Assembly: GCA_965219445.1 (NCBI GenBank)
Contig: CBDCNQ010000003.1
Coordinates: 64,001-128,000, forward strand
From: Longimicrobiales bacterium
GTDB lineage: Bacteria > Gemmatimonadota > Gemmatimonadetes > Longimicrobiales > Gaopeijiaceae
DNA length: 64,000 nt
Reading direction: 5' to 3'
The stretch's first letter is position 1; the number at the start of each line of letters is the position of its first letter. The position numbers and the translations under genes were made by a program. The notes beneath the pieces are model-generated. The model did no database searches and was not told where the DNA came from. It saw only the letters and a list, made by a program, of their open reading frames with translations. Of the stretch, positions 7,928 to 29,597 are shown one piece after another.

Positions 7928-8821
7928 ATGACACGCAAAAAGGCGAGCGACTTCGATCAGGGGCTTCTCGATCTGTTCGATAAGTACGTTCACGGTTTCA
8001 TCAACCGCCGTCAGTTTCTCGACCGTGCCTCGGCCTTCGCCGTAGGGGGTGTTTCCGCCGCCTCCCTGCTGGAGAGCCTGAGCCCCAACTACGACGATCG
8101 CCAGCAAGTGAGGAGTGACGACGCGCAGGTGAGCGGAGAGTACGTCGAGTACTCCTCGCCGCGGGGCGCCGGCACGATGCGCGGATACTTGGTGCGACCG
8201 GCGGGTTCGGACGGTGACTTGCCAGGCGTGGTCGTGGTTCATGAGAATCGAGGCCTCAACCCGTACATCGAGGATGTCGCACGCCGTGCAGCGCTCGCCG
8301 GATTCCTGGCGTTCGCGCCCGACGCGCTTACGCCGCTCGGCGGCTACCCCGGCAACGATGACGACGGTCGTACGCTTCAGGGCCAGCGGGATCGCGCCGA
8401 GATGCAAGAGGATTTCGTTGCGGCCGGAGGCTTCCTGAAATCCCACGAAGAGTGCACCGGGAACATCGGCGTGGTGGGCTTCTGCTACGGTGGTGGGATC
8501 TGCAACATGATGGCCGTGCGCATCCCTGACCTCGGGGCTTCGGTTCCCTTTTACGGAAGTCAACCCGCGGGAGAGGACGTAGACAGAATCAACGCGCCGC
8601 TGCTCATCCACTACGCGGGTCTGGACGAGCGAATCAACGCCGGATGGCCCACCTATGAGGCCGCGCTACAGGCCCACGACAAGACGTACACGATGCACAT
8701 GTACGAGGGCGTCAATCACGGATTCCACAACGACACGACGCCCCGTTACGACGAAGCAGCGGCCACGTTGGCATGGCGGCGGACCATCGACTTCTTCAAC
8801 CGGACGTTGCGCGGAATGTAA
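7928..8821 (+). CDS. yghX: Dienelactone hydrolase family protein (YghX-like)
   Basis: [17 protein letters not shown]-terminus, [14 protein letters not shown] nucleophile Cys, [11 protein letters not shown]. Confidence 0.88.
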
Positions 8822-13388: not shown

Positions 13389-13829
13389 TCGGGGTGTCAA
13401 ATGCCGCCGGGCGCGTCCCACTCCCAAGTCTTGGAGACGAGTGTTCCGCGCATGCTGAACGAGCAATCCCTTGTTGGTTCGGTTTATCGAATAAGCTGAA
13501 CTAAGATGGTGCTTTGGTTCAGGCTCGCAAGCATCAAATACTGACCCGCAAGGGTCAGGCGGTGCGTCCCACCGCAAGTTAGAGGCATCGGACATCGAGC
13601 AGTCCGTGGATGGGCCGATCAAACACCAGTGCCCTCCCCTTGCTGATCATTGTTCGACTCCGTAGCGTCGGACTTGGCGCAGCTTCCTGCAACCGACAGC
13701 ACCTGACCACATGCACCGAACCGTTCGAAGAAAAGCTTGCATCAAAGGGGGCGTCCATAGACGACAGCACCTGACCACATGCACCGAACCGGAACCTGTC
13801 AACGCCAGTGAGACACTCTTGGAAATCAA

Positions 13830-14837
13830 TTAGAGAGCAATCTCCTGTGTCGTGAGGGATGGGGTGGGAGGATTGATCCAGACGGCCTCCGGGAGTGGTT
13901 TAGGCTTCGGCTCACCGGAGACGAAGCGCTCGGGATGAGCGGCCCATGCCTCACGGAGCACGGCCTTCCTGCAGGCGATGATCCGATCGGCGTGACCGAA
14001 GTGGACCTGTTCGGGGGTCAGCATCGAGATGCCGCCATGGCGGTGCTCGGCATTATACCAACGGAAGAACGAGCGACAGAAGGTCTTGGCTTGCCCCTGA
14101 TCCCCGAACCGGCCGGGAAACGAGGGATGGTACTTCAAGGTCTTGAACTGAGCCTCGGAGAACGGATTGTCATCCGAGACCTGGGGTCGGCCCAACGAGC
14201 GGGTCACGCCGAGATCGGCGAGTAGTTGAGCCGTGCATTGGCTCGTCATCGGAGCCCCTCGATCGGAATGCAGGGTCAGGAGGTGGGGCTGGACGCCATG
14301 CTTCAAGCAACTCTGCTGGATCAGCCGGCTGGCCAGGGCAGAGTTCTCCCGATCCGCCACCATCCATCCCACGACGTAGCGGCTGAAGATGTCCAGGATC
14401 ACGTAGAGGTAGAAGTAACTCCACTTCTTCGGCCCCAGCAGCCGGGTGATATCCCAGGACCAGACCTGGTTCGGGCCCCTCGCCATCAACTCGGGCTTCT
14501 GGTATTTGGGATGACTCCGCTGCGCTCGACGCTCCTGAACCGGCACCTGGGAAGCCAGAACGCGATACATCGTACGCTCGCTGCACAGGTAGACGTCCTC
14601 GTCGAGCAGCGTCGCCACCACCTCGGCTGGGGACCGGTCCACGAACCGCTCCGAACACAGGGTGTCGAAAATCTTGTCCCGCTCCCTCTCACTTAAGGCC
14701 CGGGCGGGGGTCGGGCGGGGCTGCTGATGCCCGGTCGATGCACTCCGACGACGGTAGAACGTGGCTCGCGGCACCCTGAGCGCATCGCACGCGGGCTTCA
14801 CCCCTACGTGCTTGGCTAGCTCCTGGGTCGCCTTCAT
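13830..14837 (-). CDS. IS3-family transposase OrfB (DDE integrase core)
   Basis: PNQVWSWDIT, LHSDRG, DNPFSEAQFKTLK, WYNAEHRH; ATGA overlap with the orfA stop at 14834-14837. Confidence 0.93.
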   Translation of the reverse strand: MKATQELAKHVGVKPACDALRVPRATFYRRRSASTGHQQPRPTPARALSERERDKIFDTLCSERFVDRSPAEVVATLLDEDVYLCSERTMYRVLASQVPVQERRAQRSHPKYQKPELMARGPNQVWSWDITRLLGPKKWSYFYLYVILDIFSRYVVGWMVADRENSALASRLIQQSCLKHGVQPHLLTLHSDRGAPMTSQCTAQLLADLGVTRSLGRPQVSDDNPFSEAQFKTLKYHPSFPGRFGDQGQAKTFCRSFFRWYNAEHRHGGISMLTPEQVHFGHADRIIACRKAVLREAWAAHPERFVSGEPKPKPLPEAVWINPPTPSLTTQEIAL

Positions 14838-15283
14838 GAGTTCGTCCCGTCCTCGAGGCTCAATCCCAGCAGCCCTGCAACTTTTCCCTGGACGTCGATG
14901 ATCAAGTGCGCCTTCTGGAGCTCCTTCTCGAGGCGAGTGTTCTCGCGCTCCAGCTTGCGCACCTTCTCCTCCAGCGGATTGCGCTCGCGCTTACGGCCTC
15001 GTTTCTTCGACAGCGCTTTCAGGGACCCGCTATGCGCCGCCTTGCGCCATGTCGTCAGGTGCGACGAGTACAAGCCCTCCCGCCGTAGGAGTCGGCCAAC
15101 CTCTCCGGGCTCCGTGCACCGGTCCGCTTCTTCGACGATCCGCAGCTTGTACGACGGAGCGAACCGCCGGCGCAGCGGCCTATCTACCACCTCCGAGTCC
15201 GCAGGAGCTGCCGCGCTTCGCTTACCGTCCCAGGTTGGTGGGGCTATTCCATTCTCTTTCATTCTCTCTCGGTGTCTCAGCAT
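14834..15283 (-). CDS. IS3-family transposase OrfA (HTH plus coiled coil)
   Basis: RRRFAPSYKLRIVEEAD..LLRREGLYSSHLTTWR followed by a heptad coiled coil. Confidence 0.88.
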   Translation of the reverse strand: MLRHRERMKENGIAPPTWDGKRSAAAPADSEVVDRPLRRRFAPSYKLRIVEEADRCTEPGEVGRLLRREGLYSSHLTTWRKAAHSGSLKALSKKRGRKRERNPLEEKVRKLERENTRLEKELQKAHLIIDVQGKVAGLLGLSLEDGTNS

Positions 15284-15575
15284 CCTCGGTTTCTCTGCCT
15301 TCGCCCTACTCTAATTCCTTAGCTGCTCCGTGTCTCACGTAAGTTGGCAGAGAGGGAACCGTTCGAAGAAAAGCTTGCATCAAAGGGGGCGTCCATAGAC
15401 GACAGCACCTGACCACATGCACCGAACCGTTCGAAGAAAAGCTTGCATCAAAGGGGGCGTCCATAGACGTTCGTTCGACACTTGAGCCGAGGAAAGATTG
15501 GGGACGCAGAGTGCGGCCAAGAGCAGGGAGAGATGGCGCCTGATTGGTTCGAATCCTCCTGCGCTGCGGGGACGG

Positions 15576-17053
15576 TCAGCGGAGTTCGCGCACGCCGACG
15601 TAGAAGTTGGGGTCCACCCGGGTCCGACCCCCCGACGCCACCGATTGCCACTCCGTTATTGGGAATAGCCGTGTGTATCCGTCGCCATCCAGCGATACCC
15701 CAATAGGCATGTCGAAATCGGCCACGACGTTGTTCCATCGGTAGGAGATCGAGTCCCCATCCGTCCGATACTCGAAAGTCGGGATCATGGTTGTTCGTAG
15801 GTACTGATCGAACACTTTCGACAGGTCAACGCCCACCCGTTCGCTGATGTATCGCTCGACGTCCTCGCCGGTCACGATGGAATGCCGGAAGGTTGTGTTG
15901 AGGCCACGCAGAATGTCCCGCCAGAGAACGTCATCATCCACGACTTGGCGGAGGGTGTGCAGTAGATTGGCGCCCTTGTTGTACATGTCGTCGGACCCGT
16001 CGCTGTTGACCCCGAAGCTCCCGACCACGGGCAGTTGGTTGGTGATCCTCGTGCGCGTGCCGATCACGTATTCGGAGGCGCGTTCCTCGCTCCCGGTGAG
16101 ACACTCGACGTAGAGGTTCTCCGCATAGGTTGCGAAGCCCTCGTGGATCCAGTTTTCCGCCACGTCTGCGGCCGTGATGTTGTTCCCCCACCACTCGTGC
16201 GCCGACTCGTGTACGATGATGTAATCCCACGTGAGGCCTTGGCCCGTTCCGGACAGATCGTTGCCGAGGTACCCATTCTGGTAGCCGTTCCCGTAAGCCA
16301 CCGCGCTCTGGTGTTCCATACCGAGGTGCGGCGTTTCAATGAGCTTGAAACCGTCCTCGTACCAGGGGAACGGTCCGAACCATTCCTCGAAGCAGCGAAG
16401 GGTGGGGTGTGCCTGCGCCCACTGCCTCCGCGCAGCCGCCTCGTCTCCGCGAGTGGCCAGAAGTCCATCGTCAACGTGCCGAGTTCGCCCTGGTACTCCT
16501 CTTCCCAGTGGGCGTACTCGCCCATGCTCACGGTGATGTTGTAGCTGTTGATCGGATTGGCGACGAACCACTCGTACGTCGTGGTGCCATCACCATTCCT
16601 CGTCGTCGAGCGCAACCGGCCGTTCGAGACGTCCACGTAGGGATCGGGCACGGTGATGGCGATGCGTTGACTGTCGGGCTCGGCGGATTGCAGGTCCTTG
16701 GTCGGCCACCACACGCTGGCTCCGAGTCCCTGGTTGGCGGTGGCCACCCAGGGATTTCCGCTGCGGTCCTCCCGCCAGATGAAACCCCCATCCCACGGGG
16801 GGTTCTCTGCTGCCCTCGGGATGCCGTGGTAGTACGCGGTGACCTCCTTGGTCAGTCCGGCCGCCTGGTCGGATCGAAGCGCCACGAAGAACGCGTTGCC
16901 ATCCCTGCGGTACTCGATCGCCCGGCCGTCCTGCACGATGCTGTCGATCTCCATCGGCATCTGCAGGTCGATTTGCATTTCTGTGGCCGGCTCGAGCACC
17001 CGGTAGGTGATCCGGTTCCACCCCTCTATTCGCTCGTTCGCTGAGTCGATCGT
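15576..17053 (-). pseudogene. M1-family aminopeptidase, 3' part (5' end displaced to 25074-25220; 1-bp deletion near 16444)
   Basis: GMEHQS, HESAHEWWGN..WIHEGF (HEXXH-X18-E), YNKGA; split over ORFs 16064-16999 and 15576-16571; no signal peptide or start in situ. Confidence 0.9.
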
Positions 17054-18089
17054 GAATCAACTCCTCAGCGGAAAGACGGCTTTGGGCCACGGTGATCTGG
17101 TCCAAGCGGACCCGGAGGCCTATACCCTCCTCGAGGAGGGTCTTCACCATTCGAGAGATTTCCTCTCTCGGCATTCCCTCCGTCGCCAGCACGTGAATCC
17201 GAAGCCCTTCAACGCTGTCGACGACGATACGTGCGGAAGCGATGGCCCTCGCCGACTCCAGAAGCGATTCGCCCCGTTCACGTAGTATCGCCCGCGGGTC
17301 AGCCCCGCCACCTGACTCGATCAGTTCCGTCGCCTCCCAGGCCGGTCGACCTCCCTTCATCGACAACCGGGTCACCCTGCGAGCCGTGGCCTCGAGTGTT
17401 GCACGAACAACGGCGGGGCCGGAGTCCCCCGTCAACGGCCAGGCGGCGATGAGCGGCACCGCATGTTCAGACATCGTGACCACCACCACCACCGCCACGC
17501 GCGAGCCACCAAGGGAAAATTCGGATACGCTCTCGAGCGCGAGGGTCGGCCCGTCGCCGCCCTCAGATGCGAAACGAATGTAAGAGCCGACAGCGCTCAG
17601 TGTGGCCAGGGCAGGTAACCGATCGCTGCCTGGAGAGTTGGCCTTCCCTGACGCGCCCCCGGCATAGCGACGGCCCCCGACGCTGAGGGTCAACTCGACT
17701 CCGACGACCCCCGGGCTGACGTCATGCACCTGGTGAGCTATGAGTCTGAAGCCCCCCGTTTCGGGCGTATCTGGTGTGGCCGTAACAGGGTCTTCGTGGG
17801 GCTCATCCCGGACCTGGAGGGACCCGTCGCCCACCGACGTAACCTGGATACGGAATAAGGCTCCTAGCGCGGGCTCGTCGGCGTTCGCCTGGAGAGCAGT
17901 ACGAACCGCCTCGAGCGTTTCCGAAACGGGCGGATCTCCCTCGACCAGAAGGCGCACCTCAGGCGCATTGGCCAGGTCACCCTCTAGGGAGGCGGAAAGC
18001 ACCCCCGGTAAAGCCTCCAGGAGGCGCTCCGCCCCATGCATCCACGTCGAAAATTTCTCCACTCGGGAGGCCCCCAACGCAATATCCAA
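17054..18089 (-). pseudogene. Hypothetical protein, 5' part (~345 codons; continues at 25220-25987)
   Basis: Natural-looking sequence up to QITVAQSRLSAEELI, then reads out of frame through the M1 gene; start codon uncertain. Confidence 0.75.
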
Positions 18090-18285
18090 AGGCAGGAGGT
18101 ACTGATTCTTGGGATAGAGTCGGGTTTGTGCAAGTTCCGTCGAGTGGAGATTCCACCAAGGACGCCTGGCACGCCTGTAATCTCACTCGGGTTGCAGTTT
18201 ACGGCTCGACTCGGCATGGTGATCCCCTAGCAGGGCCGGAGGCACACATCGAGTGCCGGAGACACTTCACGAGGAGGTGACCTGG

Positions 18286-19197
18286 ATGCCGTCCGTCCAG
18301 ACGCGGGTGAAAGGAGCCGTACTCGCGGTCGCCCTCGGCGTGTGGGTCGGCGGGGGCGCGGCCCAGGATAGCGACGTTTCACTCGCCGGCGCCATCGATT
18401 TTCACGTGCACTCCGGCCCCGACTCCCGCCCGCGATCGATGACCGATCTGGAAGTGGCCCGTATGACGAGACGTGCCGGTCTGCGCGGCATCGTGCTGAA
18501 GAACCACTTCACCATGACGGCCGACCGAGCGGAGCTGGCGATGAGGCAGGTCGAGGGTCTCGAGATATTCGGCGGGGTCGTCTTGAACCGGGCCGTCGGC
18601 GGGCTCAACGCCGAAGCGGTGCGCCAGATGGTGCAGTTCGACGGCCGGCGGGGGAAGGTGGTCTGGCTGCCGACGTTCGACGCGGAGTATCCCGTCACCG
18701 CGCAGGGCGGGGCGGGTCCTTTCGTGTCGGTGACACAGGCGGGGGCGCCGGTCCGCGAGCTCGCGGAGATCTTCAGACTCGTGGCCGAGCACGACCTCGT
18801 GCTCGCCATGGGGCATTCGGCACCCGAGGAAGTGCTGGTCCTCATCCCCGAGGCGCGCCGCCACGGTGTCGAGCAGATCCTCGTGACGCACGCGTTCTCA
18901 CAGAACCCCTCACGCGCACAGATGCAGCAGATGGCGGACGCCGGCGCGCTTCTCGAGATCGACTGGCACGCGGTGGATCTTGGAAACCAGACCCTGGCCA
19001 CGTATGTCTCGGCCATCGAGGAGATCGGCGCGGAGCATTTCGTGATGTCGTCGGATCTCGGACAGGCAATTGGCCCGTCGCATGTCGATGGCCTGCGCGC
19101 CTACGTCACCGCGCTTCGCGGTGCTGGCGTCACCGACGACGAGATCGACCTGATGTTGCGACGGAATCCGGCGCGGTTGCTGGGTTTGGAGCCCTAG
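18286..19197 (+). CDS. Exported amidohydrolase-superfamily protein (DUF6282-like)
   Basis: IDFHVHSGPD, VLKNH, MGH, VTH, MSSDLGQ; GAGGAGG RBS; signal peptide. Confidence 0.82.
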   Translation: MPSVQTRVKGAVLAVALGVWVGGGAAQDSDVSLAGAIDFHVHSGPDSRPRSMTDLEVARMTRRAGLRGIVLKNHFTMTADRAELAMRQVEGLEIFGGVVLNRAVGGLNAEAVRQMVQFDGRRGKVVWLPTFDAEYPVTAQGGAGPFVSVTQAGAPVRELAEIFRLVAEHDLVLAMGHSAPEEVLVLIPEARRHGVEQILVTHAFSQNPSRAQMQQMADAGALLEIDWHAVDLGNQTLATYVSAIEEIGAEHFVMSSDLGQAIGPSHVDGLRAYVTALRGAGVTDDEIDLMLRRNPARLLGLEP

Positions 19198-19267
19198 GAT
19201 AACTGGAGAGCCGCACCGATACGCGGGCCTCCGCATCCTCGGCTCGGGCCACCTCAACGAGCGATCC

Positions 19268-20065
19268 ATGACCCCGGCAACCCATCCCACCCCTCTGCAC
19301 CGCAACGGCCTCCGGCTGCTCATCGCCCTCGCGGCAGCTTCTCCCCTGCCCATGTCTGCCCAGGTCAATGTAGAGGCGCTCCGGAGTGACGATCCACCGC
19401 TCGGATACTCGGGCACTTTCGGTGGGGATTTGACCCTGCGGACCGGAAACGTGGACTTGGTTCAGCTCGGTCTGAACGCACGCCTCTACAACGTGACGGA
19501 ATCGGTAACCCGGCTCATCGTAGGAAACGGGGGACTCGGTTTTCTCGGCGGGAGCCGCTTCTCATCGTCAGGTCTGTTGCACTATCGCCAAACCTACCGG
19601 TACGACGGCCTCGTCTCGCCAGAGTGGTGGGGGCAATTGAACTACGACCAGCCTCAACTCCTCGACTTCAGAATGATCACGGGGGGCGGAGTGCGGATCT
19701 CCTTCGCCAGCGGAGATTGGGGGCAGTTCGGTATGGGCGCTGCTCTCATGTTGGAACACGAGCGACTGGACCTCCCCGTTACCGCAGTGCACGATGATCG
19801 CACCACCAACATCCGGGGGAGCTACTTCCTCGCGCTGCGTCTGGTACCAACCGAGAACCTCGTGATCACGTCTACGACTTATCTACAGCCCGCCGTCAGC
19901 GACTGGGGTGACACGCGGACGCTCGCGAATCTTCGTATCGCGACCTCCGTGACGGATGCGTTGGACCTCACGGTATCGTTCGATCTCCGCTACGACGGAG
20001 GACCGCCCGACGGCATCAGCGCGCTGGATACGAGCTTGAGAACCGGGCTCAGATATTCCTACTGA
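19268..20065 (+). CDS. DUF481-like outer-membrane beta-barrel
   Basis: Signal peptide then QVNVEALR; amphipathic strands; C-terminal GLRYSY. Confidence 0.75.
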   Translation: MTPATHPTPLHRNGLRLLIALAAASPLPMSAQVNVEALRSDDPPLGYSGTFGGDLTLRTGNVDLVQLGLNARLYNVTESVTRLIVGNGGLGFLGGSRFSSSGLLHYRQTYRYDGLVSPEWWGQLNYDQPQLLDFRMITGGGVRISFASGDWGQFGMGAALMLEHERLDLPVTAVHDDRTTNIRGSYFLALRLVPTENLVITSTTYLQPAVSDWGDTRTLANLRIATSVTDALDLTVSFDLRYDGGPPDGISALDTSLRTGLRYSY

Positions 20066-20083
20066 GCGCCGCGGTGACAACCG

Positions 20084-21643
20084 CTATGCTTGCTCCAATG
20101 ACCCCGACTCGGACGGCTCCGCCGCCTGATGCAGTTTCATGTTAAGCATGCGCAGTGTCGCACCGACACCGGCGAGCACCTGGTTGGGGCTGACACCGCG
20201 CGTTCTCACTGTGCGTGGGCCATCCCGCCAGGTGATGAACACCTCGGTCAGCGCGCTGGTGCTGCCGCCCTTGGGGATGAGCAACTCGTAGTCCACCAGC
20301 TCCGGGAATTCGAAGCCGAGCGGAAAGACCTTCCGGATCGCGTCGACGAAGGCGTCAAATCCGCCGTTTCCCGATCCAGACGCGTCGTGGACCTCGTCGT
20401 TCACCTTCACCCGGATGCTCACGCTGGATGCGTGGTCCAGCTCACTGGTGATTGAACAGTCCAAGAGCTCGATGTGGCGGAAGTCCTTGCGCTCCAACAC
20501 GTCGGCGATGATGAACGGTAGATCCTCTGCCGTGATGGTTTCCTTCGAATCCCCCAGACTCACGATCCGTTTCAGCACTTCCGCCTGGTCTTCGGGAGAC
20601 AGGCTGATGCCCAGCTCCTCGAGGTTCTTCTTCAGCGACGCCTTTCCGCTCATTTTGCCGAGCGCGTAGCTGCGCCTACGATCGAAACGCTCTGGGCTCA
20701 ATGGCGTTTGATAAAGCCCCGCTTTGTGATCGCCGTCCGCGTGTATGCCGCTGGTCTGTGTGAACACGTCGGCGCCGATCACGGGGGCGTTGTCGGCGAC
20801 TCGCTTGCCCGAGAAGTTCTCCACCATCCGGCTGAGGGCGAGGATCTTGGTCTCGTCGATCGACAGGGTCATTCCCATCTTGTCGCGAACCGCGACCGCG
20901 ACTTCGGCGAGGGACACGTTGCCCGCCCGCTCCCCAAGGCAGTTCACCGTGCAGTGAATGGTGCGGATTCCGGCCTCGACCGCCCTCATGGCGTTGGCAG
21001 TCGCCAGCCCATAGTCGTTGTGCGGATGAAAGTCGAACGTCTCCTCGGGGAACCTCGCGATCATGTCGGACAGGCTCGCATGAACTTCATCCGGCGTCAT
21101 CACACCGAGCGTATCGGGCAACATGACATGCGCGACTCCCGTTCCCCGCAGTCCCTCCACGAGTCTGTAGACGTAATCGCGGCTGTCCCGATACCCGTTG
21201 GACCAATCCTCCAAGTACACGTTGACTGTAAGCCCCTGCTCACGTGCATATTCAACCGTGCGAAGAATGTCTTCGAGATGTTGTTCGAGGGTTCGCCGCA
21301 ACTGCATGCGGCAGTGCCGCTCGCTGCCCTTGGTGAGCAGGTTCATCACATGCGCGCCGGTCGATACGATCCAGTCCGCACTTCGGCGTTCGTCGACGAA
21401 TCCCAGGATCTCGACCCGGTCTAGGCAGCCTCCGGCAGCCGCCCAATCCGCGATCCGGGTGACGGCTTCTTTTTCACCTGCGGACACGGCGGCCGAGGCG
21501 ACCTCGATACGATCGACCTGCAGCGAGCCGAGCAAGGCCCCGGCGATGCTGACCTTTTCCGACGTGGAGAACGAAACGTCGCGGGTCTGCTCGCCGTCCC
21601 GCAGTGTGGTGTCCATCAACTCAACGTGATCGCTGGTATTCAT
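20084..21643 (-). CDS. cimA: Citramalate synthase / 2-isopropylmalate synthase family enzyme with regulatory domain
   Basis: DTTLRDGEQT, YLEDWSNG, LPDTLG, HPHND, GERAGN, GIHADGD, YALGK; resembles the Leptospira/Bacteroidota CimA type. Confidence 0.82.
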   Translation of the reverse strand: MNTSDHVELMDTTLRDGEQTRDVSFSTSEKVSIAGALLGSLQVDRIEVASAAVSAGEKEAVTRIADWAAAGGCLDRVEILGFVDERRSADWIVSTGAHVMNLLTKGSERHCRMQLRRTLEQHLEDILRTVEYAREQGLTVNVYLEDWSNGYRDSRDYVYRLVEGLRGTGVAHVMLPDTLGVMTPDEVHASLSDMIARFPEETFDFHPHNDYGLATANAMRAVEAGIRTIHCTVNCLGERAGNVSLAEVAVAVRDKMGMTLSIDETKILALSRMVENFSGKRVADNAPVIGADVFTQTSGIHADGDHKAGLYQTPLSPERFDRRRSYALGKMSGKASLKKNLEELGISLSPEDQAEVLKRIVSLGDSKETITAEDLPFIIADVLERKDFRHIELLDCSITSELDHASSVSIRVKVNDEVHDASGSGNGGFDAFVDAIRKVFPLGFEFPELVDYELLIPKGGSTSALTEVFITWRDGPRTVRTRGVSPNQVLAGVGATLRMLNMKLHQAAEPSESGSLEQA

Positions 21644-21869
21644 GCTTGTCTGGCCATCGTCCGGCCGGTCTCTCCGTGTCGTCGAAAAATCACCGAAGAA
21701 ACGGACTCTAACGGTTCAGGGATAGGCATCAAAGAGGGATGGTGACGGCGCCGGGTAGGGGAACCTCCTTGTCGGCCGCTGGGCACAATCGTACCATGCC
21801 TCTCAGCTCCGGTGGTCGGTTGGATCACCTATCCATGAGGTGTTCAAGTACTGCAAAAAGGGGGCTGTC

Positions 21870-22625
21870 ATGAGGTATCTGCTTGCCGTCGTCGCGTTGC
21901 TCCTGTCGAGCGGGACCGCGCTGGCCCAGTCGACGTCCGTGATGATCGACGACCTTACGACGACCGAGGTGCAGGCGGCGATCGACGCCGGCAAGACCAC
22001 GGCCATTTACTACGTTGGGGGGACCCATCAGAGTGGCCCGGCGGTGGCGCTCGGGAAGCACAATCTGCTCAGCGCGCACCTCTCCCGGCGCGTCGCAGAG
22101 ACGCTGGGTAACGCGCTCGCATATCCGCCGAATCCCTACGCCCCGGCCGGCGACCCGATCGAGAAAACCGGGCACATGCGCTTCGCCGGGACCATCAGCG
22201 TATCGCACGAGACGCTCGCGGCGGTTTCTCGCGATGTCGCCGTCAGCGCGCTGGCGGTCGGCTTCACCCATGTCGTTATGTTGGGCGACCATGCCGAGAC
22301 GCAGGGGGTCATCAGAGAGGTCGCCACAGAGCTAGACGCCGAGTGGCGGGCGATGGGCGGTCGCGTGTTCTTTATCCCGGTCTATGAGGAAGGTGAGGGA
22401 CGGATGCGGGAGATCCTGGCAGCGCGCAACGTGCCCACCAACCGGATGACGCCGATCGACGATGCCAGCGAAATGATGGCGCTCAGCGCGGACGGCCGGT
22501 GGGTGCGCCCGGACCAGCTCGCAGACGACATCGCCGCGGTCGCTTCGGAGGAGCTCGGCAGACGGTTCATCGACGGCAAAGTCGAGGTGGCGGTGGCGAG
22601 TATTCGGGAATTGGTAGGCCGATAG
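21870..22625 (+). CDS. Exported creatininase-family protein
   Basis: DLTTTEV, GGTHQSGPAVALGKHN, FAGTISV, LGDH; signal peptide. Confidence 0.75.
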   Translation: MRYLLAVVALLLSSGTALAQSTSVMIDDLTTTEVQAAIDAGKTTAIYYVGGTHQSGPAVALGKHNLLSAHLSRRVAETLGNALAYPPNPYAPAGDPIEKTGHMRFAGTISVSHETLAAVSRDVAVSALAVGFTHVVMLGDHAETQGVIREVATELDAEWRAMGGRVFFIPVYEEGEGRMREILAARNVPTNRMTPIDDASEMMALSADGRWVRPDQLADDIAAVASEELGRRFIDGKVEVAVASIRELVGR

Positions 22626-22660
22626 ACGCGGCTGGCACTCCGGGAACTACGTGGCGCCCA

Positions 22661-23326
22661 TCAGGACCCCTTCTCCCGGAAGCCGATCCGGTGGTAAGGG
22701 TTCACGACGCTCGTCGCCACGTTCTTGAGGTGCGCGCTGACCCGTTTCAGATACCGCAGGTAGAGTGCCACGGTGGTCGCATGCCCCGACCGTCCCGACA
22801 ACGCCTCACCCGAGCACAAGGCCCGCACGTGCTCGTCCACCTGGGATGCGATGATGGTGTGAGACCCTATGATGCCCCTGGCCTTGGCTTCGTCGGATTC
22901 CTCGAGGCATGGCGCGATGTCGTCGAACATCCGAACCATGGACTTCTCGATCTCAGCCACTTCGCTGTGTAGCTCGAGCCCGTTGAACGGCCCCGGAACC
23001 GCACCCGCCAACTCCACGATGTTCTTGGTGTAGTCGCCGATTCGCTCGATATCGATGACGATCGCGGTAAGCACCAGCCCCAGGTTGATGTCCGGCTTGG
23101 ACGACACGGACATGTGCGTCACGATCTTCCGACGAACTCTCCGTTCGTACTTGTTGATCTGCTGATCACGCTTGTAGATGTCGGTCTCCAAGGCGCCCTC
23201 CGCGTGGAGCTGCTCGACGGCGTGGTCGAACATGTCGTGGGAGGCCCGAAGCATCAGAAGGGCCTCGTCGTACGCCTCCTGCAGCGGGCCTTGAGACCTG
23301 AACAGCGTGACAATTTCCTTCCACAT
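22661..23326 (-). CDS. PhoU-domain protein
   Basis: DQQINKYE, DIERIGDYTKNI, LKRVSAHLKN; follows the Na/Pi symporter. Confidence 0.88.
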   Translation of the reverse strand: MWKEIVTLFRSQGPLQEAYDEALLMLRASHDMFDHAVEQLHAEGALETDIYKRDQQINKYERRVRRKIVTHMSVSSKPDINLGLVLTAIVIDIERIGDYTKNIVELAGAVPGPFNGLELHSEVAEIEKSMVRMFDDIAPCLEESDEAKARGIIGSHTIIASQVDEHVRALCSGEALSGRSGHATTVALYLRYLKRVSAHLKNVATSVVNPYHRIGFREKGS

Positions 23327-23344
23327 GGCTTGCTAACCTTTCGG

Positions 23345-24457
23345 CTACAGAATGAAGTAGAGAATTGGGATGATGTGGAGCAAAACGTATATCGTCATCA
23401 CACCCGCCGAGCTGATCCTGGTCCGAGCCGCATACGCGCCGACCTTCTGTGCCATCCAGATGGGAGCCGCTCGCAGCGGATAGAAGATTGCGATCCCCAG
23501 CAGATTGAAGCAGAGGTGGGCAAGAGCCACGGTCACCGCAGCGGGGCTAGCTGTCGAGAATGAAGCCAGAATCGCGGTAATCGTCGTTCCGATATTGGCT
23601 CCGAGCGTGTAGGGGAAGATCTGCCTGAGCGACAGAACCCCGGTCCCTGCCAGCGGGACGATCAGCGAAGTCGTCGCTGAGCTGCTCTGCACCGCCGCGG
23701 TCGTCACGATACCGAGACCGAAGCTGGCGACGTCGTTCCGAAAGAGGACCCGATCGAAGAGTGCTGCCATCCTTTCCAGGAACACGCCCCGCATGAGGCG
23801 CATCAGCCGCTGAAGGGCAACGAAGAGGATGAGGAGCGCGATGCCGATGAGCGGCAACTCATAGGGAACCGCCCCGGCCACCCAATCGGAGAGCGGCCTC
23901 ACGGCGGCGTTGAGCGGGCTGGCGAGACTCATCCCACCGGCGCCCGCGAAGAGACCCTGTAGGATCACCGCCATCCTTTCTACCGGATGGAAGAAAACCT
24001 CCACCGGCAAGATGACCGCCGCCGCGAGGACATTGAAGAAGTCGTGCACCGTCGATGCCGCGAACGCCCGCTCGAATTCCGTAGGACGCGTGATGTGCCC
24101 CATGGAGACGAGCGTATTCGTGGTCGTGGTTCCGATGTTCGCGCCCATGAGCATGGGCACCGCCAGGCCGATCGTGAGCGCCTGTGATGCGACCAGGCCG
24201 ACGATGATGGTCGTGGTGGTGGACGAGCTCTGGATCAGGCTCGTCGCCAGAAACCCGATGAAGAGACCCGCCACCGGATCCGAGGCTGTGTTCAGAATCT
24301 GTTCTGCGAAGCCACGGCCGCCCATCCCGAACGCCGTGCTCATCAGCTCTATGCTGAAGAAGAACAGGTAGAGCAGAGCGAGAAAGTAGCCGACGAGGCC
24401 GATCGTTCGGGCCGGGCTGGTCTCTGGTGGGGGGTGCAAAGTGGTCAGTTCGGGCAC
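23345..24457 (-). CDS. Na+/phosphate symporter (SLC34/NptA family)
   Basis: Two QSSS motifs, two GANIGTT motifs, HDFFN; start uncertain (GTG 24457 chosen). Confidence 0.9.
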   Translation of the reverse strand: MPELTTLHPPPETSPARTIGLVGYFLALLYLFFFSIELMSTAFGMGGRGFAEQILNTASDPVAGLFIGFLATSLIQSSSTTTTIIVGLVASQALTIGLAVPMLMGANIGTTTTNTLVSMGHITRPTEFERAFAASTVHDFFNVLAAAVILPVEVFFHPVERMAVILQGLFAGAGGMSLASPLNAAVRPLSDWVAGAVPYELPLIGIALLILFVALQRLMRLMRGVFLERMAALFDRVLFRNDVASFGLGIVTTAAVQSSSATTSLIVPLAGTGVLSLRQIFPYTLGANIGTTITAILASFSTASPAAVTVALAHLCFNLLGIAIFYPLRAAPIWMAQKVGAYAARTRISSAGVMTIYVLLHIIPILYFIL

Positions 24458-24613
24458 CAGGGGCAGGTCCTCTTGTAAGGGCAGCGACGACACGGTGAGC
24501 GAGACGCGGAGAAAGTACAGGATTTCCACCACCCGGAAAGACCGCCCGTGATCGCTACACCGAGTCCGTGAGATCCTTGCAGCCTCAGGCGCCCTAGACG
24601 CATCTTGTGCGCC

Positions 24614-25081
24614 ATGTCTGACGCCTTCGAACGAAGCCCCCGGCAGCACATTCTGTTCCTTTGTGTCGCGAATTCCGCACGGAGCCAAATGGCCGAGGGC
24701 CTCGCCCGGCAGATTCTCGGCGAACGGGCCGAAGTGTCGAGCGCTGGCTCGAATCCCGCTTCGTTAAGTTCTCATGCGGTGGAGGCGATGGCCGAGATCG
24801 ATATCGACATCACTGGTCACTTTTCAAAGTCCGTGGACACGATCGATCTATCTGGCCTCGACCTGGTGGTGACGCTTTGCGCCGAGGAGGTCTGCCCGAT
24901 CCTGCCGGCACGAGTTCGGCGGCTGCACTGGCCGATCCCCGACCCCGCCGCACAAGACCGCGGTGAACCGAAAGCACATTTCCGCGCCGCCCGCGAGGTG
25001 ATCCAAGAGAAGATCGAGGCTCTGGCGGAGACGCTCGAGGACTCCGCGAAGACCTCGACGACCGACTCCAGCCATGTATAG
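24614..25081 (+). CDS. arsC: Arsenate reductase (LMW-PTP fold)
   Basis: [14 protein letters not shown]-loop, [15 protein letters not shown]. Confidence 0.88.
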
Positions 25082-25220
25082 AATCATCTTCCCCGTCGTC
25101 ATCTCGCTGGCCGCAGGGCTCCAGGCCCAGGCAGTCCAGTTCACTCACGCGGACACGCTACGCGGCTCGGACGGGCCGGCCCGTTCCTGGTGGGACGTGA
25201 CGTTCTACGATCTGCACGTC
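25074..25220 (+). pseudogene. M1 aminopeptidase 5' fragment (signal peptide plus first residues, 49 codons)
   Basis: [49 protein letters not shown]; start overlaps the arsC stop. Confidence 0.85.
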
Positions 25221-25987
25221 GTGTTCTTGGCCGTAAGGCACCGAGTACGTCCTCCACTGAGGACATGACCCGCAGCTCGCCGGTGACCAGCGCGGATCCT
25301 TCGGTGGTCGTGCCCCGCCTCACGCTCGTGGACTTTCACATTGTGTCCAACAAGATGGGAGGGGAGCAGGAGGTCGGCGTACGGATCACGCGGGCCAGCA
25401 GCTCCGTTGACGGTCACTGCCGGGCGCCTGGAGGGGGTGCGGCACTCTTGCGGCCGTTCGCGGAAGCGACCCTGGACGCCGTCGGTCGGCTTACCCAGCG
25501 GGGCCGAAGGCGATTATCCCTCGTGCTCAGGGATGTGCGACGCTTCAGGAGGCGGGGTGATGAGGGGGTAGTGGTGCTCGTTGAGGCGAAAGTGGACGGT
25601 CGCAAGACGCTATGGTCGGGTGCGGCGTTCTCCGCTGATTCGTTCGAACGGGCATCCGTCGCGGCGGTTCTCCAGGCTACGAACGCGTTCGTGGCGGGTG
25701 ACCTGGAAATCACACAAGCGGACCGCCCCCCGACCGGTCCGGCGGCTCCCCAGGACCGATCCCCTCAGGAGCCATCGGACTCACCCAAGCCGTCAGACTC
25801 CACCATACCTTCCGACTCGCCAAGGCCATCGGACTCGTCGAGATCATGGGATTCGTCGAGGGGATCGGATTCGCCAACGACGGTGGACTCGCCGAAGGCA
25901 CCGGCTCCGGACGACTATGTAAGTGAGGTGCTGTCGCGAATTCAGTCTACCCGTAGGCGGGACCCGGCGCGGCCCTCATCAGGCTGA
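25220..25987 (+). pseudogene. Hypothetical protein, 3' part
   Basis: RLTLVDF..VGVRI..FAEATLDAV..VLQATN parallels the first-half domain of 17054-18089; no good start of its own. Confidence 0.75.
25772..25897 (+). repeat. Seven degenerate 18-bp (6-aa, PSDSPK-like) coding repeats
   Basis: PSDSPK PSDSTI PSDSPR PSDSSR SWDSSR GSDSPT TVDSPK. Confidence 0.85.
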
Positions 25988-26880
25988 CTATCGATAGGCT
26001 GACTTCGATTTTGCAGAGCGCGACCCACGAGGACCGTGATGTTGTCGCTGCCCCCATCGTCCAGAGCGTCCCGTAGTAGGTCTTCGCACACCTGCTTGGC
26101 GGAGGTCATGGATCGTAGCCGCTCGGCGATCAGTTCATCCGGTACGTGCTTGGTCAGTCCATCGCTGCAAAAGAGGTGTACGTAGTCCCAATCCTGGTCG
26201 ATTCCAGTGACAACGGGGGTCGCTTCCGAACCCCCGATGGCACTCGCGAGCACGTTGGAAAGCGGCGACTTGGACGCCTCGGTCCGAGAGAATACGTCGT
26301 CGTCGACCAGCACCTGAGCCAGCGTCTGATCCCTGGAGATCTGCGTCAGCTCACCGTCCCTCAGGATGTAGTATCGGCTGTCCCCAACCTGGAGGAGGTA
26401 GGCGCGCGGCCACACGAAGAGCATGAGCGTGAGCGTCGTGGCCATCGCCTTTCCCGACTCGGCGACGCGACGCTCGCGAAGATCCTCGTGGCAGTGGAGT
26501 GCCGCGTCGGCGAGGGCCTGGGTAAAGGCCTGATCGTCGGTAGGATCGGCCGTGTAATAGCAGTCCATGCTCCCAGCGGCGTACTGGCTCACGGCCTCCA
26601 GCGCCCGCCGGCTCGCGGCCTCACCCTCCGGTCCGCCTCCGACCCCATCGGCAATCAACATCAAGAAGGCGAGGCGCTCCGTCTCTCCGTGCAGCCTATT
26701 CGTGTCGGGCAGGCTGGTCTGATGCACCTCCATGCGTTTCTGGAGCGAGGAAATGAGAAAGTGGTCCTGATTCTCCTTTCGCACCTTCCCCGGGTGGGTG
26801 AGACCGTAGACGTCGATCTGGTCGTCGGTGGGCTTTCGGCCGACGGCCCGAGCCTTTTGCACATTTTCGATCACGGTCAT
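25942..26880 (-). CDS. PP2C-family Ser/Thr protein phosphatase
   Basis: GKVRKENQD, IADGVGG, QVGDSR, SRDQT, CSDGL, GGSDNIT. Confidence 0.93.
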   Translation of the reverse strand: MTVIENVQKARAVGRKPTDDQIDVYGLTHPGKVRKENQDHFLISSLQKRMEVHQTSLPDTNRLHGETERLAFLMLIADGVGGGPEGEAASRRALEAVSQYAAGSMDCYYTADPTDDQAFTQALADAALHCHEDLRERRVAESGKAMATTLTLMLFVWPRAYLLQVGDSRYYILRDGELTQISRDQTLAQVLVDDDVFSRTEASKSPLSNVLASAIGGSEATPVVTGIDQDWDYVHLFCSDGLTKHVPDELIAERLRSMTSAKQVCEDLLRDALDDGGSDNITVLVGRALQNRSQPIDSQPDEGRAGSRLRVD

Positions 26881-27046
26881 TGGCCCCCCTTGGCGGCGCT
26901 CGAACTTGGCGGCAGATGGGCCATCCGGCCCCCATGCACGGTACCCTCACGGGGCTGGGGATTATGGGTGCCGGCATCCCACGCAGCAAGAGCGAGGCGG
27001 TGCCCGCTTTTTGTCATCCACGGGCCAGAGCCGGTAGAATGACCCC

Positions 27047-27965
27047 ATGCCTACGATCCACTCCCTTCCGGACGACCGCGACATCGAGGTCGCCGACGGC
27101 GAAACCATCCTCGCCGCCTCGCTGCGGGCCGATATTCCGCACGCCCATGCGTGTGGAGGTCAAGCTCGTTGTTCGACATGTCGGGTACTCGTACTCGAAG
27201 GCGTCGAGATGTGCGGTTCCCGTACGGAGCGCGAGGAGAGGCTCGCCGAGCAGTTACGCTTCGGTGAGAACGTGCGTCTGGCGTGCCAAACGACCGTGCA
27301 CGGGGACCTATCGATCCGACGGCCAGTCGTGGATAGGGTCGATCTTGCGCTGGCCAATCTTCTGGATCGGAGCCAGGCCACCGAACAGGTGGGGGAAGAA
27401 ATGCGTCTGGCGGTCCTGTTCGCGGACATCAGCCACTACACTTCATTCGCGGAACGCTTGCTGCCGTACGATGTGACCCATGTGCTGAACCGGTATTTCT
27501 TTCTTATGGCCGAAGTCATTCAGTCCCACGGTGGGCACGTCAGTGACTACATCGGGGACGGCCTGATGGCCCTGTTCGGCATCCATGGTGACGGCGACCA
27601 GGCGGCTCGCGCGGTCCGGGCAGGCCTAGGCATAGTTCGAGGTGCTGGGCGAACTCAACCCCTACGTCCAGACAATGTACGGACGAGAACTCGACATTCG
27701 GGTGGGCATCCACGTGGGGGACGCCGTAGTGGGCACGATCGGCATCGCTCCCATGGAGAAGCTGGCGGCCATCGGCGATGCGGTGAACTTTGCCAGCCGG
27801 ATCGAGGCAGCGAACAAAGAAGTCGAGACCCGCTTTCTCGTGTCGGAGGACACAGTGGCCCAGCTGGACGAGAGTTTCCAGATCGGTCGCAGCTTCGAAC
27901 TGCCCGTCAAGGGCAAGTCGGGGACGCACATGCTGTACGAAGTGGTGGGGCTCGGCTCCGACTGA
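27047..27965 (+). pseudogene. [2Fe-2S] ferredoxin-fused class III adenylate/guanylate cyclase, frameshifted near 27634
   Basis: CGGQARCSTC..RLACQ; LFADI, YIGDGLMA in the first frame; RVGIHVG, IGDAVNFASRIE, VKGK in the second frame. Confidence 0.88.
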
Positions 27966-27989
27966 TGCCTCGGGCGCCGCGACAGGGAC

Positions 27990-29597
<1,608 letters not shown>

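Follow-up and report, generated by a model that had tools for sequence, protein, structure and literature searches.

Serine recombinases exchange DNA at a 2-bp core with exact reciprocity, and the Hin and Gin systems are serine-invertase switches; tyrosine recombinases normally need a shared overlap of 6-8 bp. Inversions that have no repeats, lose no bases and show a 2-bp overlap are usually blamed on serine recombinases that have not been seen. Here we analyse such an inversion in a 64,000-nucleotide stretch of DNA (the window) from a Longimicrobiales bacterium, which corresponds to positions 64001-128000 of contig C3 in a five-contig assembly of 4.56 Mb that is 92% complete (G000). The inversion breaks two genes at once, one for an M1 metallopeptidase and one for a conserved hypothetical protein, and it was probably produced when a type IIG restriction enzyme of the cell's own cut the chromosome at two copies of the word CGCTGAG and the ends were rejoined the other way round.

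The closest described enzymes are those of the DrdV and TaqII/TaqIII/TspGWI class. DrdV has a 7-bp site with a methylated adenine at position 6 and cuts 10/8 downstream, leaving a 2-base 3' overhang; enzymes of its type are described as methylating one strand only and as cutting as multimers bound to several sites (bioRxiv 10.1101/2021.01.06.425610). TaqII-class (Thermus-family) enzymes are reported to cut 11/9 from the methylated adenine (PMC5587805). The class as a whole combines an asymmetric site of 6-7 bp with this cut and a 2-nt 3' overhang, and the G000 enzymes are homologous to it. The descriptions of its members are biochemical and concern the cutting of foreign DNA, whereas here the site is predicted and the trace would be a footprint of self-cleavage fixed in a wild chromosome.

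Other systems resemble the locus in part. Restriction-modification (RM) genes have been described as mobile and associated with insertions, deletions and inversions (PMC2853133), and our case would likewise link mobile RM genes to a chromosomal inversion. The rearrangements in that account adjoin the RM genes, while here the RM gene lies on another contig and the evidence is a word at cutting distance from both break points. In Sinorhizobium, nonhomologous end joining (NHEJ) by Ku and LigD repaired compatible 3' overhangs faithfully (98%), and a break in the chromosome took up a cassette whose ends were compatible (PMC6379672); the faithful joining of compatible restriction ends is the feature in common, although the cuts there were engineered and the main text of that paper never uses the word 'inversion'. 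Intragenic invertons, bounded by inverted repeats (PMC10028968), and serine-invertase switches share with our locus an exact inversion with break points inside genes and, for the serine invertases, the 2-bp core. The locus differs from them in several respects: its original sites do not form an inverted repeat, the search for a serine recombinase was negative, no sample gives a sign of both forms, and one of the two target genes has decayed. In a search of the literature outside subscription papers, no natural case came up of an inversion whose two ends both lie at cutting distance from a type IIG word.

An exact inversion of 8,167 bp

The inverted segment and the pieces of the two genes that it breaks are as follows.

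17054-25220, no strand: inverted segment, 8,167 bp with the 2-bp overlaps of both ends counted, defined by block order against contig C39 of congener G008 and against congener G005, and by gap-free rejoined junctions
17054-17055, forward strand: left 2-bp core GA, predicted 2-nt 3' overhang
25219-25220, forward strand: right 2-bp core TC, reverse complement of the left core
25074-25220, forward strand: 5' piece of the M1 metallopeptidase gene, 49 codons, matching G008 8587-8730, where it is contiguous with the body
15576-17055, reverse strand: body of the M1 metallopeptidase gene (PF01433), separated from its start and frameshifted near 16443
17054-18089, reverse strand: 5' half of the conserved hypothetical gene, about 345 codons, now fused to the out-of-frame peptidase tail in a 499-aa open reading frame (ORF) at 16590-18089
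25219-25987, forward strand: 3' half of the conserved hypothetical gene, 600 aa when rejoined

The inversion is real and exact. The 2-bp inverted overlap consists of GA at 17054-17055 and TC at 25219-25220, and flipping the segment at any point within it gives the in-frame junctions HVTID and LIRVL, in agreement with the coordinates, the shared TC/GA dinucleotide and the junctions that an earlier note, made from the letters of the window, had proposed. Over the 51 nt around its junction the rejoined peptidase gene aligns ungapped to three congeners (G005, G008 and G011), and the rejoined hypothetical gene to four (G005, G008, G007 and G004), so that no base was gained or lost, as the note had also read it, and homologs run continuously across both restored junctions. 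The comparison of synteny that the note had called for revealed that in contig C39 of G008 the block and its flanks stand in the unflipped order, the breaks falling at window positions 17055/17061 and 25219/25220. Together with the gap-free rejoined alignments, this indicates that the unflipped order is ancestral and that the event was lossless. A repeat search over window positions 14,000-28,000 found no long repeat at the junctions; the absence of a long inverted repeat had thus been seen correctly, and what had been overlooked is a short in-register one at the left junction, CGCTGAG at 17039-17045 and CTCAGCG at 17064-17070.

Eight sequencing runs contain the stretch, and contigs of four of them (X3, X4, X5 and X8) were compared with the window. 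Two X3 contigs (sample S2), covering 15444-18526 and 23515-27725, pass both junctions in the window orientation with 0 differences, and an X8 contig at 16932-17373 (sample S4, same study as X3) crosses the left junction in that orientation, also with 0 differences; X3 is possibly the sample behind the genome assembly. In X4 and X5 (sample S3, other study) the match of a contig to the window starts at 17056, at contig letter 368. A 3-nt gap at 25348 also appears in these runs, with depths (10.2 and 8.9) equal to those of that contig. The first 367 letters of the contig therefore most likely belong at 25219 and beyond, where the hypothetical gene has its unflipped junction. Judged by these matching depths, the S3 strain appears to be unflipped. 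Over about 4.4 kb, a single substitution and a single 3-nt gap separate the X4 pieces listed from the window, so that the flipped and unflipped forms belong to very close strains and the event is recent. Each sample shows one orientation in the contigs listed for these four of eight runs, at depths of 4-10 and in contigs that drop rare forms. An exact 30-nt search of JGI metagenome contigs gave 0 matches. The hypothetical gene of the S3 strain lacks 3 nt at window position 17479 as well as at 25348, both in-frame differences.

The peptidase gene has been damaged twice. Its 5' piece today reads on out of frame into a 64-aa product, and its body, which the earlier note had taken as a single frame, is split over frames by a 1-bp loss near 16443; rejoined and given one added base, it encodes 541 aa with 80-83% identity to three congeners. 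An additional T follows 16443 in X4 and X5. In the X3 strain the frameshift is real, and such decay fits a dead gene. The rejoined hypothetical protein of 600 aa aligns over its full length to four congeners at 55-62%.

A shared word and the type IIG enzymes of the genome

The left junction (17039-17070) has the layout CGCTGAG-N8-[GA]-N8-CTCAGCG, with the word at two places.

17039-17045, forward strand: CGCTGAG, followed after 8 nt by the core; the type IIG recognition site predicted for the original break in the peptidase gene
17064-17070, reverse strand: CGCTGAG, separated from the core by 8 nt; in the original order this copy preceded the second break point by 8 nt and pointed the same way as the first copy

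It follows from this layout that each of the two break points originally had CGCTGAG on the upstream side of its core at a distance of 8 nt, both copies pointing the same way. The sixth base of the word is adenine and the core occupies exactly positions 9-10 downstream, which is the geometry of DrdV (10/8) and of the TaqII class (11/9 from the adenine). An in-register run of at least 7 between arms occurred in 0.0031-0.0084 of random site pairs (200,000 draws per arm length), and an identical 7-mer with its A at 11/9 from the cut in 6.8e-5 (1,000,000 draws), or 2.7e-4 over any of four cutter geometries. Off-register palindromes at the junctions had been considered and were abandoned once the in-register 7-mer was found.

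The overhangs fit the observed product as well. In the original order, window positions 5,000-37,000 hold eight CGCTGAG sites, with predicted overhangs GA, TT, GC, TC, CA, CG, TA and AC. Only GA and TC, the observed pair, could cross-join, and solely by inverting the block; the four sites inside the block could only re-seal unchanged.

Analysis of the genome revealed three full-length enzymes of the corresponding type.

G000:C5:954782-958180: type IIG enzyme, full-length
G000:C5:974635-978039: type IIG enzyme, full-length, the candidate
G000:C5:1182718-1186104: type IIG enzyme, full-length

All three (1128-1134 aa, open frames) have the order nuclease-methylase-recognition, find DrdV (7LO5) as their best PDB match and are classed as type IIG by PADLOC; motifs resembling PD..EVK, and NPPY, were read by eye. 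The G000 enzymes are about 29-33% identical to TaqII and TaqIII. The family has seven matching places in G000, broken copies included, against none in 11 congeners, several of them incomplete (E<=1e-40). The copy at C5:974635 lies near an integrase-like ORF and defence-like genes (by eye), with a PF00589 match at C5:980561. The absence from the congeners and these neighbours suggest that the enzyme arrived recently. The recognition loops consist of a few interchangeable cassettes shuffled among homologs (120 homologs listed), and within G000 the copies at C5:954782, 974635, 1182718, 66689, 383512 and 1609405 are 79-91% identical and differ mainly in these short cassettes.

To compare recognition residues, the G000 enzymes were aligned with TaqII, TaqIII and ten other plasmid proteins in three MAFFT modes. 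Under all three modes the C5:974635 enzyme has K/D/E/R/N at the positions of TaqII residues 686/776/777/779/817. In the code described for type ISP enzymes, Lys at LlaGI position 1226 goes with C at motif position 2, and LlaBIII reads T at position 3 with Asn at the LlaGI-1368 position and G at position 1 with Asp1326 (PMC4872093). CGCTGAG has G, C and T at positions 1, 2 and 3, so the enzyme agrees with the word at positions 2 and 3 and is contested at 1; the agreement at position 0 is deduced, and positions 4 and 6 carry no prediction. The truncated copy at C5:66689 also fits the code, and the other two full-length paralogs do not (Q/D-R/His or gap; T/D-E/Asp). The C5:974635-978039 enzyme or a paralog is thus predicted to read CGCT(G)A(G) and to cut 10/8. 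Genes for Ku and LigD lie next to each other in G000.

The inversion, its exactness, the 2-bp core, the spacing of the 7-mer, the enzymes and Ku/LigD are established, and from these we infer, beginning with the specificity of the enzyme, the following course. Host CGCTGAG sites would have been transiently unmethylated, for example after the arrival of an element carrying the enzyme, and the enzyme would have cut two of them 8.2 kb apart, the two bases found at each cut becoming its overhang. GA and TC could then fit their old partners or each other in inverted order, which would give the reciprocal product without gain or loss, and the ends may have been sealed by Ku-LigD or by an ordinary ligase. 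We consider such a recent, one-off self-restriction followed by flipped religation the probable origin of the inversion. It is favoured by the geometry of word and cut, the resident enzymes, the pairing of overhangs, Ku/LigD and the lack of a serine recombinase match. Both broken genes are probably bystanders whose loss was incidental.

Several observations weigh against this explanation. The word was found after several patterns had been inspected at the junctions, so that the p-values are post hoc and optimistic, and CGCTGAG is not depleted in G000 (observed/expected 0.985). The authors of the code warn that no simple code exists, and they predict that Glu1327, which the C5:974635 enzyme has, could favour A over G at position 1 (PMC4872093). 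The C at position 0 is assigned from Glu on chemical grounds, and positions 4 and 6 are unpredicted (Ser, not Lys, at 1131). With three enzymes to choose from, we calculate a chance match of about 18% at two positions and about 5% at three. The assembly is 92% complete, so a recombinase could be missing from it. No second reciprocal intragenic inversion was present in the 1.27 Mb of G000 aligned to G005 (2.37 of 4.66 Mb screened; 620 unique blocks), and among 187 repeat break points the exact word occurs in two cases, at a distance of 8 nt in one (C4:761375) and of 27 nt in the other. With no second clean case, the claim therefore rests on one event.

The truncation at C4:761375 was not counted as a second case; it adjoins a tRNA-like attachment fragment with a 12-nt repeat (by eye). 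At this place an insertion sequence (IS) copy ends 8 nt after CGCTGAG and is followed by three extra bases, the attachment fragment and the 12-nt repeat of IS sequence. Enrichment of 6-mers in general at 8-10 nt from repeat break points was not above that at 20-22 nt, repeated elements aside. CGCTGAG sites are not tied to repeat ends (21 of 966 sites, against a genome fraction of 2.2%), and the word and its flanks are not conserved in congeners.

On a wider reading, which we put forward tentatively, mobile type IIG enzymes that methylate a single strand may act as natural Golden Gate editors of the host chromosome: on arrival they would cut it some way off from their sites, variable 2-nt overhangs would direct its reassembly, and pairs compatible by chance would yield scarless inversions with a readable word-N8-core footprint, so that comparing genomes would give the specificity. 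If the present inversion is a restriction scar, the locus provides base-level evidence, in a wild bacterium, of a newly acquired RM system rearranging its host's chromosome, together with a simple signature that can be screened across strain pairs. It would also predict which site an uncharacterised member of a large enzyme family recognises, and a single methylome could test this.

Other explanations of the inversion

Among the alternatives, two double-strand breaks independent of sequence and joined by Ku/LigD at a 2-bp microhomology hold up best, although we regard them as unlikely; the shared 7-mer would then be chance. Ku and LigD are present, the event is single, CGCTGAG is not avoided in the genome, and an IS copy with swapped internal pieces and an added base at its joints (G000:C5:124020-125233) suggests that end joining does scramble sequences here. 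Such an origin requires a coincidence of 0.3-0.8%, and a far smaller one at the exact cutter geometry. Both junctions are moreover lossless, whereas incompatible ends under bacterial NHEJ are reported with mutations at both ends (PMC6379672).

Next in order, and also improbable, is a single recombination at pseudo-sites in which CGCTGAG would serve as a half-site. The enzyme would be either a serine recombinase from an element that was passing through or is missing from the assembly, or else a tyrosine or IS110 recombinase resident in the genome. The 2-bp core and the exact reciprocal exchange are present as expected of a serine-recombinase product, and the incomplete genome has 66 matches to the tyrosine recombinase family PF00589 and 38-40 to IS110. 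However, the genome-wide search for serine recombinases that the earlier note had recommended gave no match to PF00239, PF07508 or IS607 (NF033518) in the 92% of G000 that is covered, with controls detected. Quasi-symmetric inverted crossover sites are not present either: each original site has CGCTGAG on one arm only, this arm pair matches in direct orientation, and between the other arms no in-register run exceeds 3. The 15-mers around the cores have 1 of 61 matches (up to 2 mismatches) at repeat ends, as chance predicts. By eye, the target and ends of the 22-copy IS110, the family to which this comparison applies, are unlike either site; a single-copy IS110 family may still fit. For a tyrosine recombinase, a 2-bp core falls short of the overlap normally needed. 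Of the pseudo-site event that the note had listed, the one-off character is thus supported, while the evidence favours a restriction cut with 2-nt overhangs over a serine-recombinase pseudo-site.

A programmed, reversible intragenic switch that turns both genes off together, which the note had also offered, is very improbable. Both orientations appear to exist within the species, and intragenic invertons are known (PMC10028968). Against this stand the lack of a serine recombinase match and of site symmetry, the absence of an inverted repeat between the original sites and the lack of conservation of the motif and its flanks in congeners. Two X3 contigs, 3,083 and 4,211 nt long, run unbroken through the junctions, and no branch is listed for them, at a depth of about 4 that a minor form could escape. 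The peptidase is also frameshifted, so that flipping back would not restore it, and a reversible switch for this gene is excluded in the flipped strain.

The misassembly that the note had considered, or a library artefact, is the least probable of all and we reject it, since contigs from independently assembled runs cross the junctions, X8 comes from a different sample than X3 and no repeat lies there to mislead an assembler, even though X3 may be the source sample and frameshifts occur in 19 of 570 orthologous ORFs of G000 compared with G005.

Passenger genes and mobile elements

The inverted segment carries a set of intact genes.

18253-25081, no strand: passenger genes, intact, for a DUF6282 amidohydrolase, a DUF481 protein, a cimA-like synthase, a creatininase-like protein, PhoU, a Na/Pi cotransporter and an arsC-like protein

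The Na/Pi cotransporter and PhoU of the cargo first described are present, as is an arsC-like gene, and one name has to be weakened: the synthase is only cimA-like, its best NCBIfam match (NF042433, 601 bits) lying below the 950 cut-off of that model. For the broken hypothetical gene, NCBIfam gave no match to the 597-aa ortholog in G008, Pfam gave none for either of the window halves, and the ESM Atlas gave matches only below 0.9, to unnamed clusters.

On either side of the inversion the window shows further changes. An IS3-type element of 1,567 bp (rve and HTH_Tnp_1) occupies 13790-15356, has more than 12 copies elsewhere that are 100% identical and is flanked by a 74-bp direct duplication; this locus differs in the X4/X5 strain, where a contig reaching 15468 has 398 other letters to its left. 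At 27047-27965 a ferredoxin-adenylate/guanylate cyclase gene is split over two frames near 27640, and its frameshift appears real because the X3 contig that reaches 27725 is ungapped.

Mobile elements are frequent in the genome as a whole. About 14% of it lies in repeats, and many of the 66 tyrosine recombinase matches are in near-identical multi-copy elements. In the copy of the 22-copy IS110 at C5:124020-125233, two neighbouring internal pieces of about 81 and 93 nt have changed places; each break follows CT, and an extra T is present at two joints. This commonest IS110 (G000:C2:272168-273961 and about 21 other places) is inserted at one and the same position, slightly inward from the left end of a second IS that looks IS256-like by eye. 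It seems to spread as a passenger of this host IS, of which copies without IS110 also exist.

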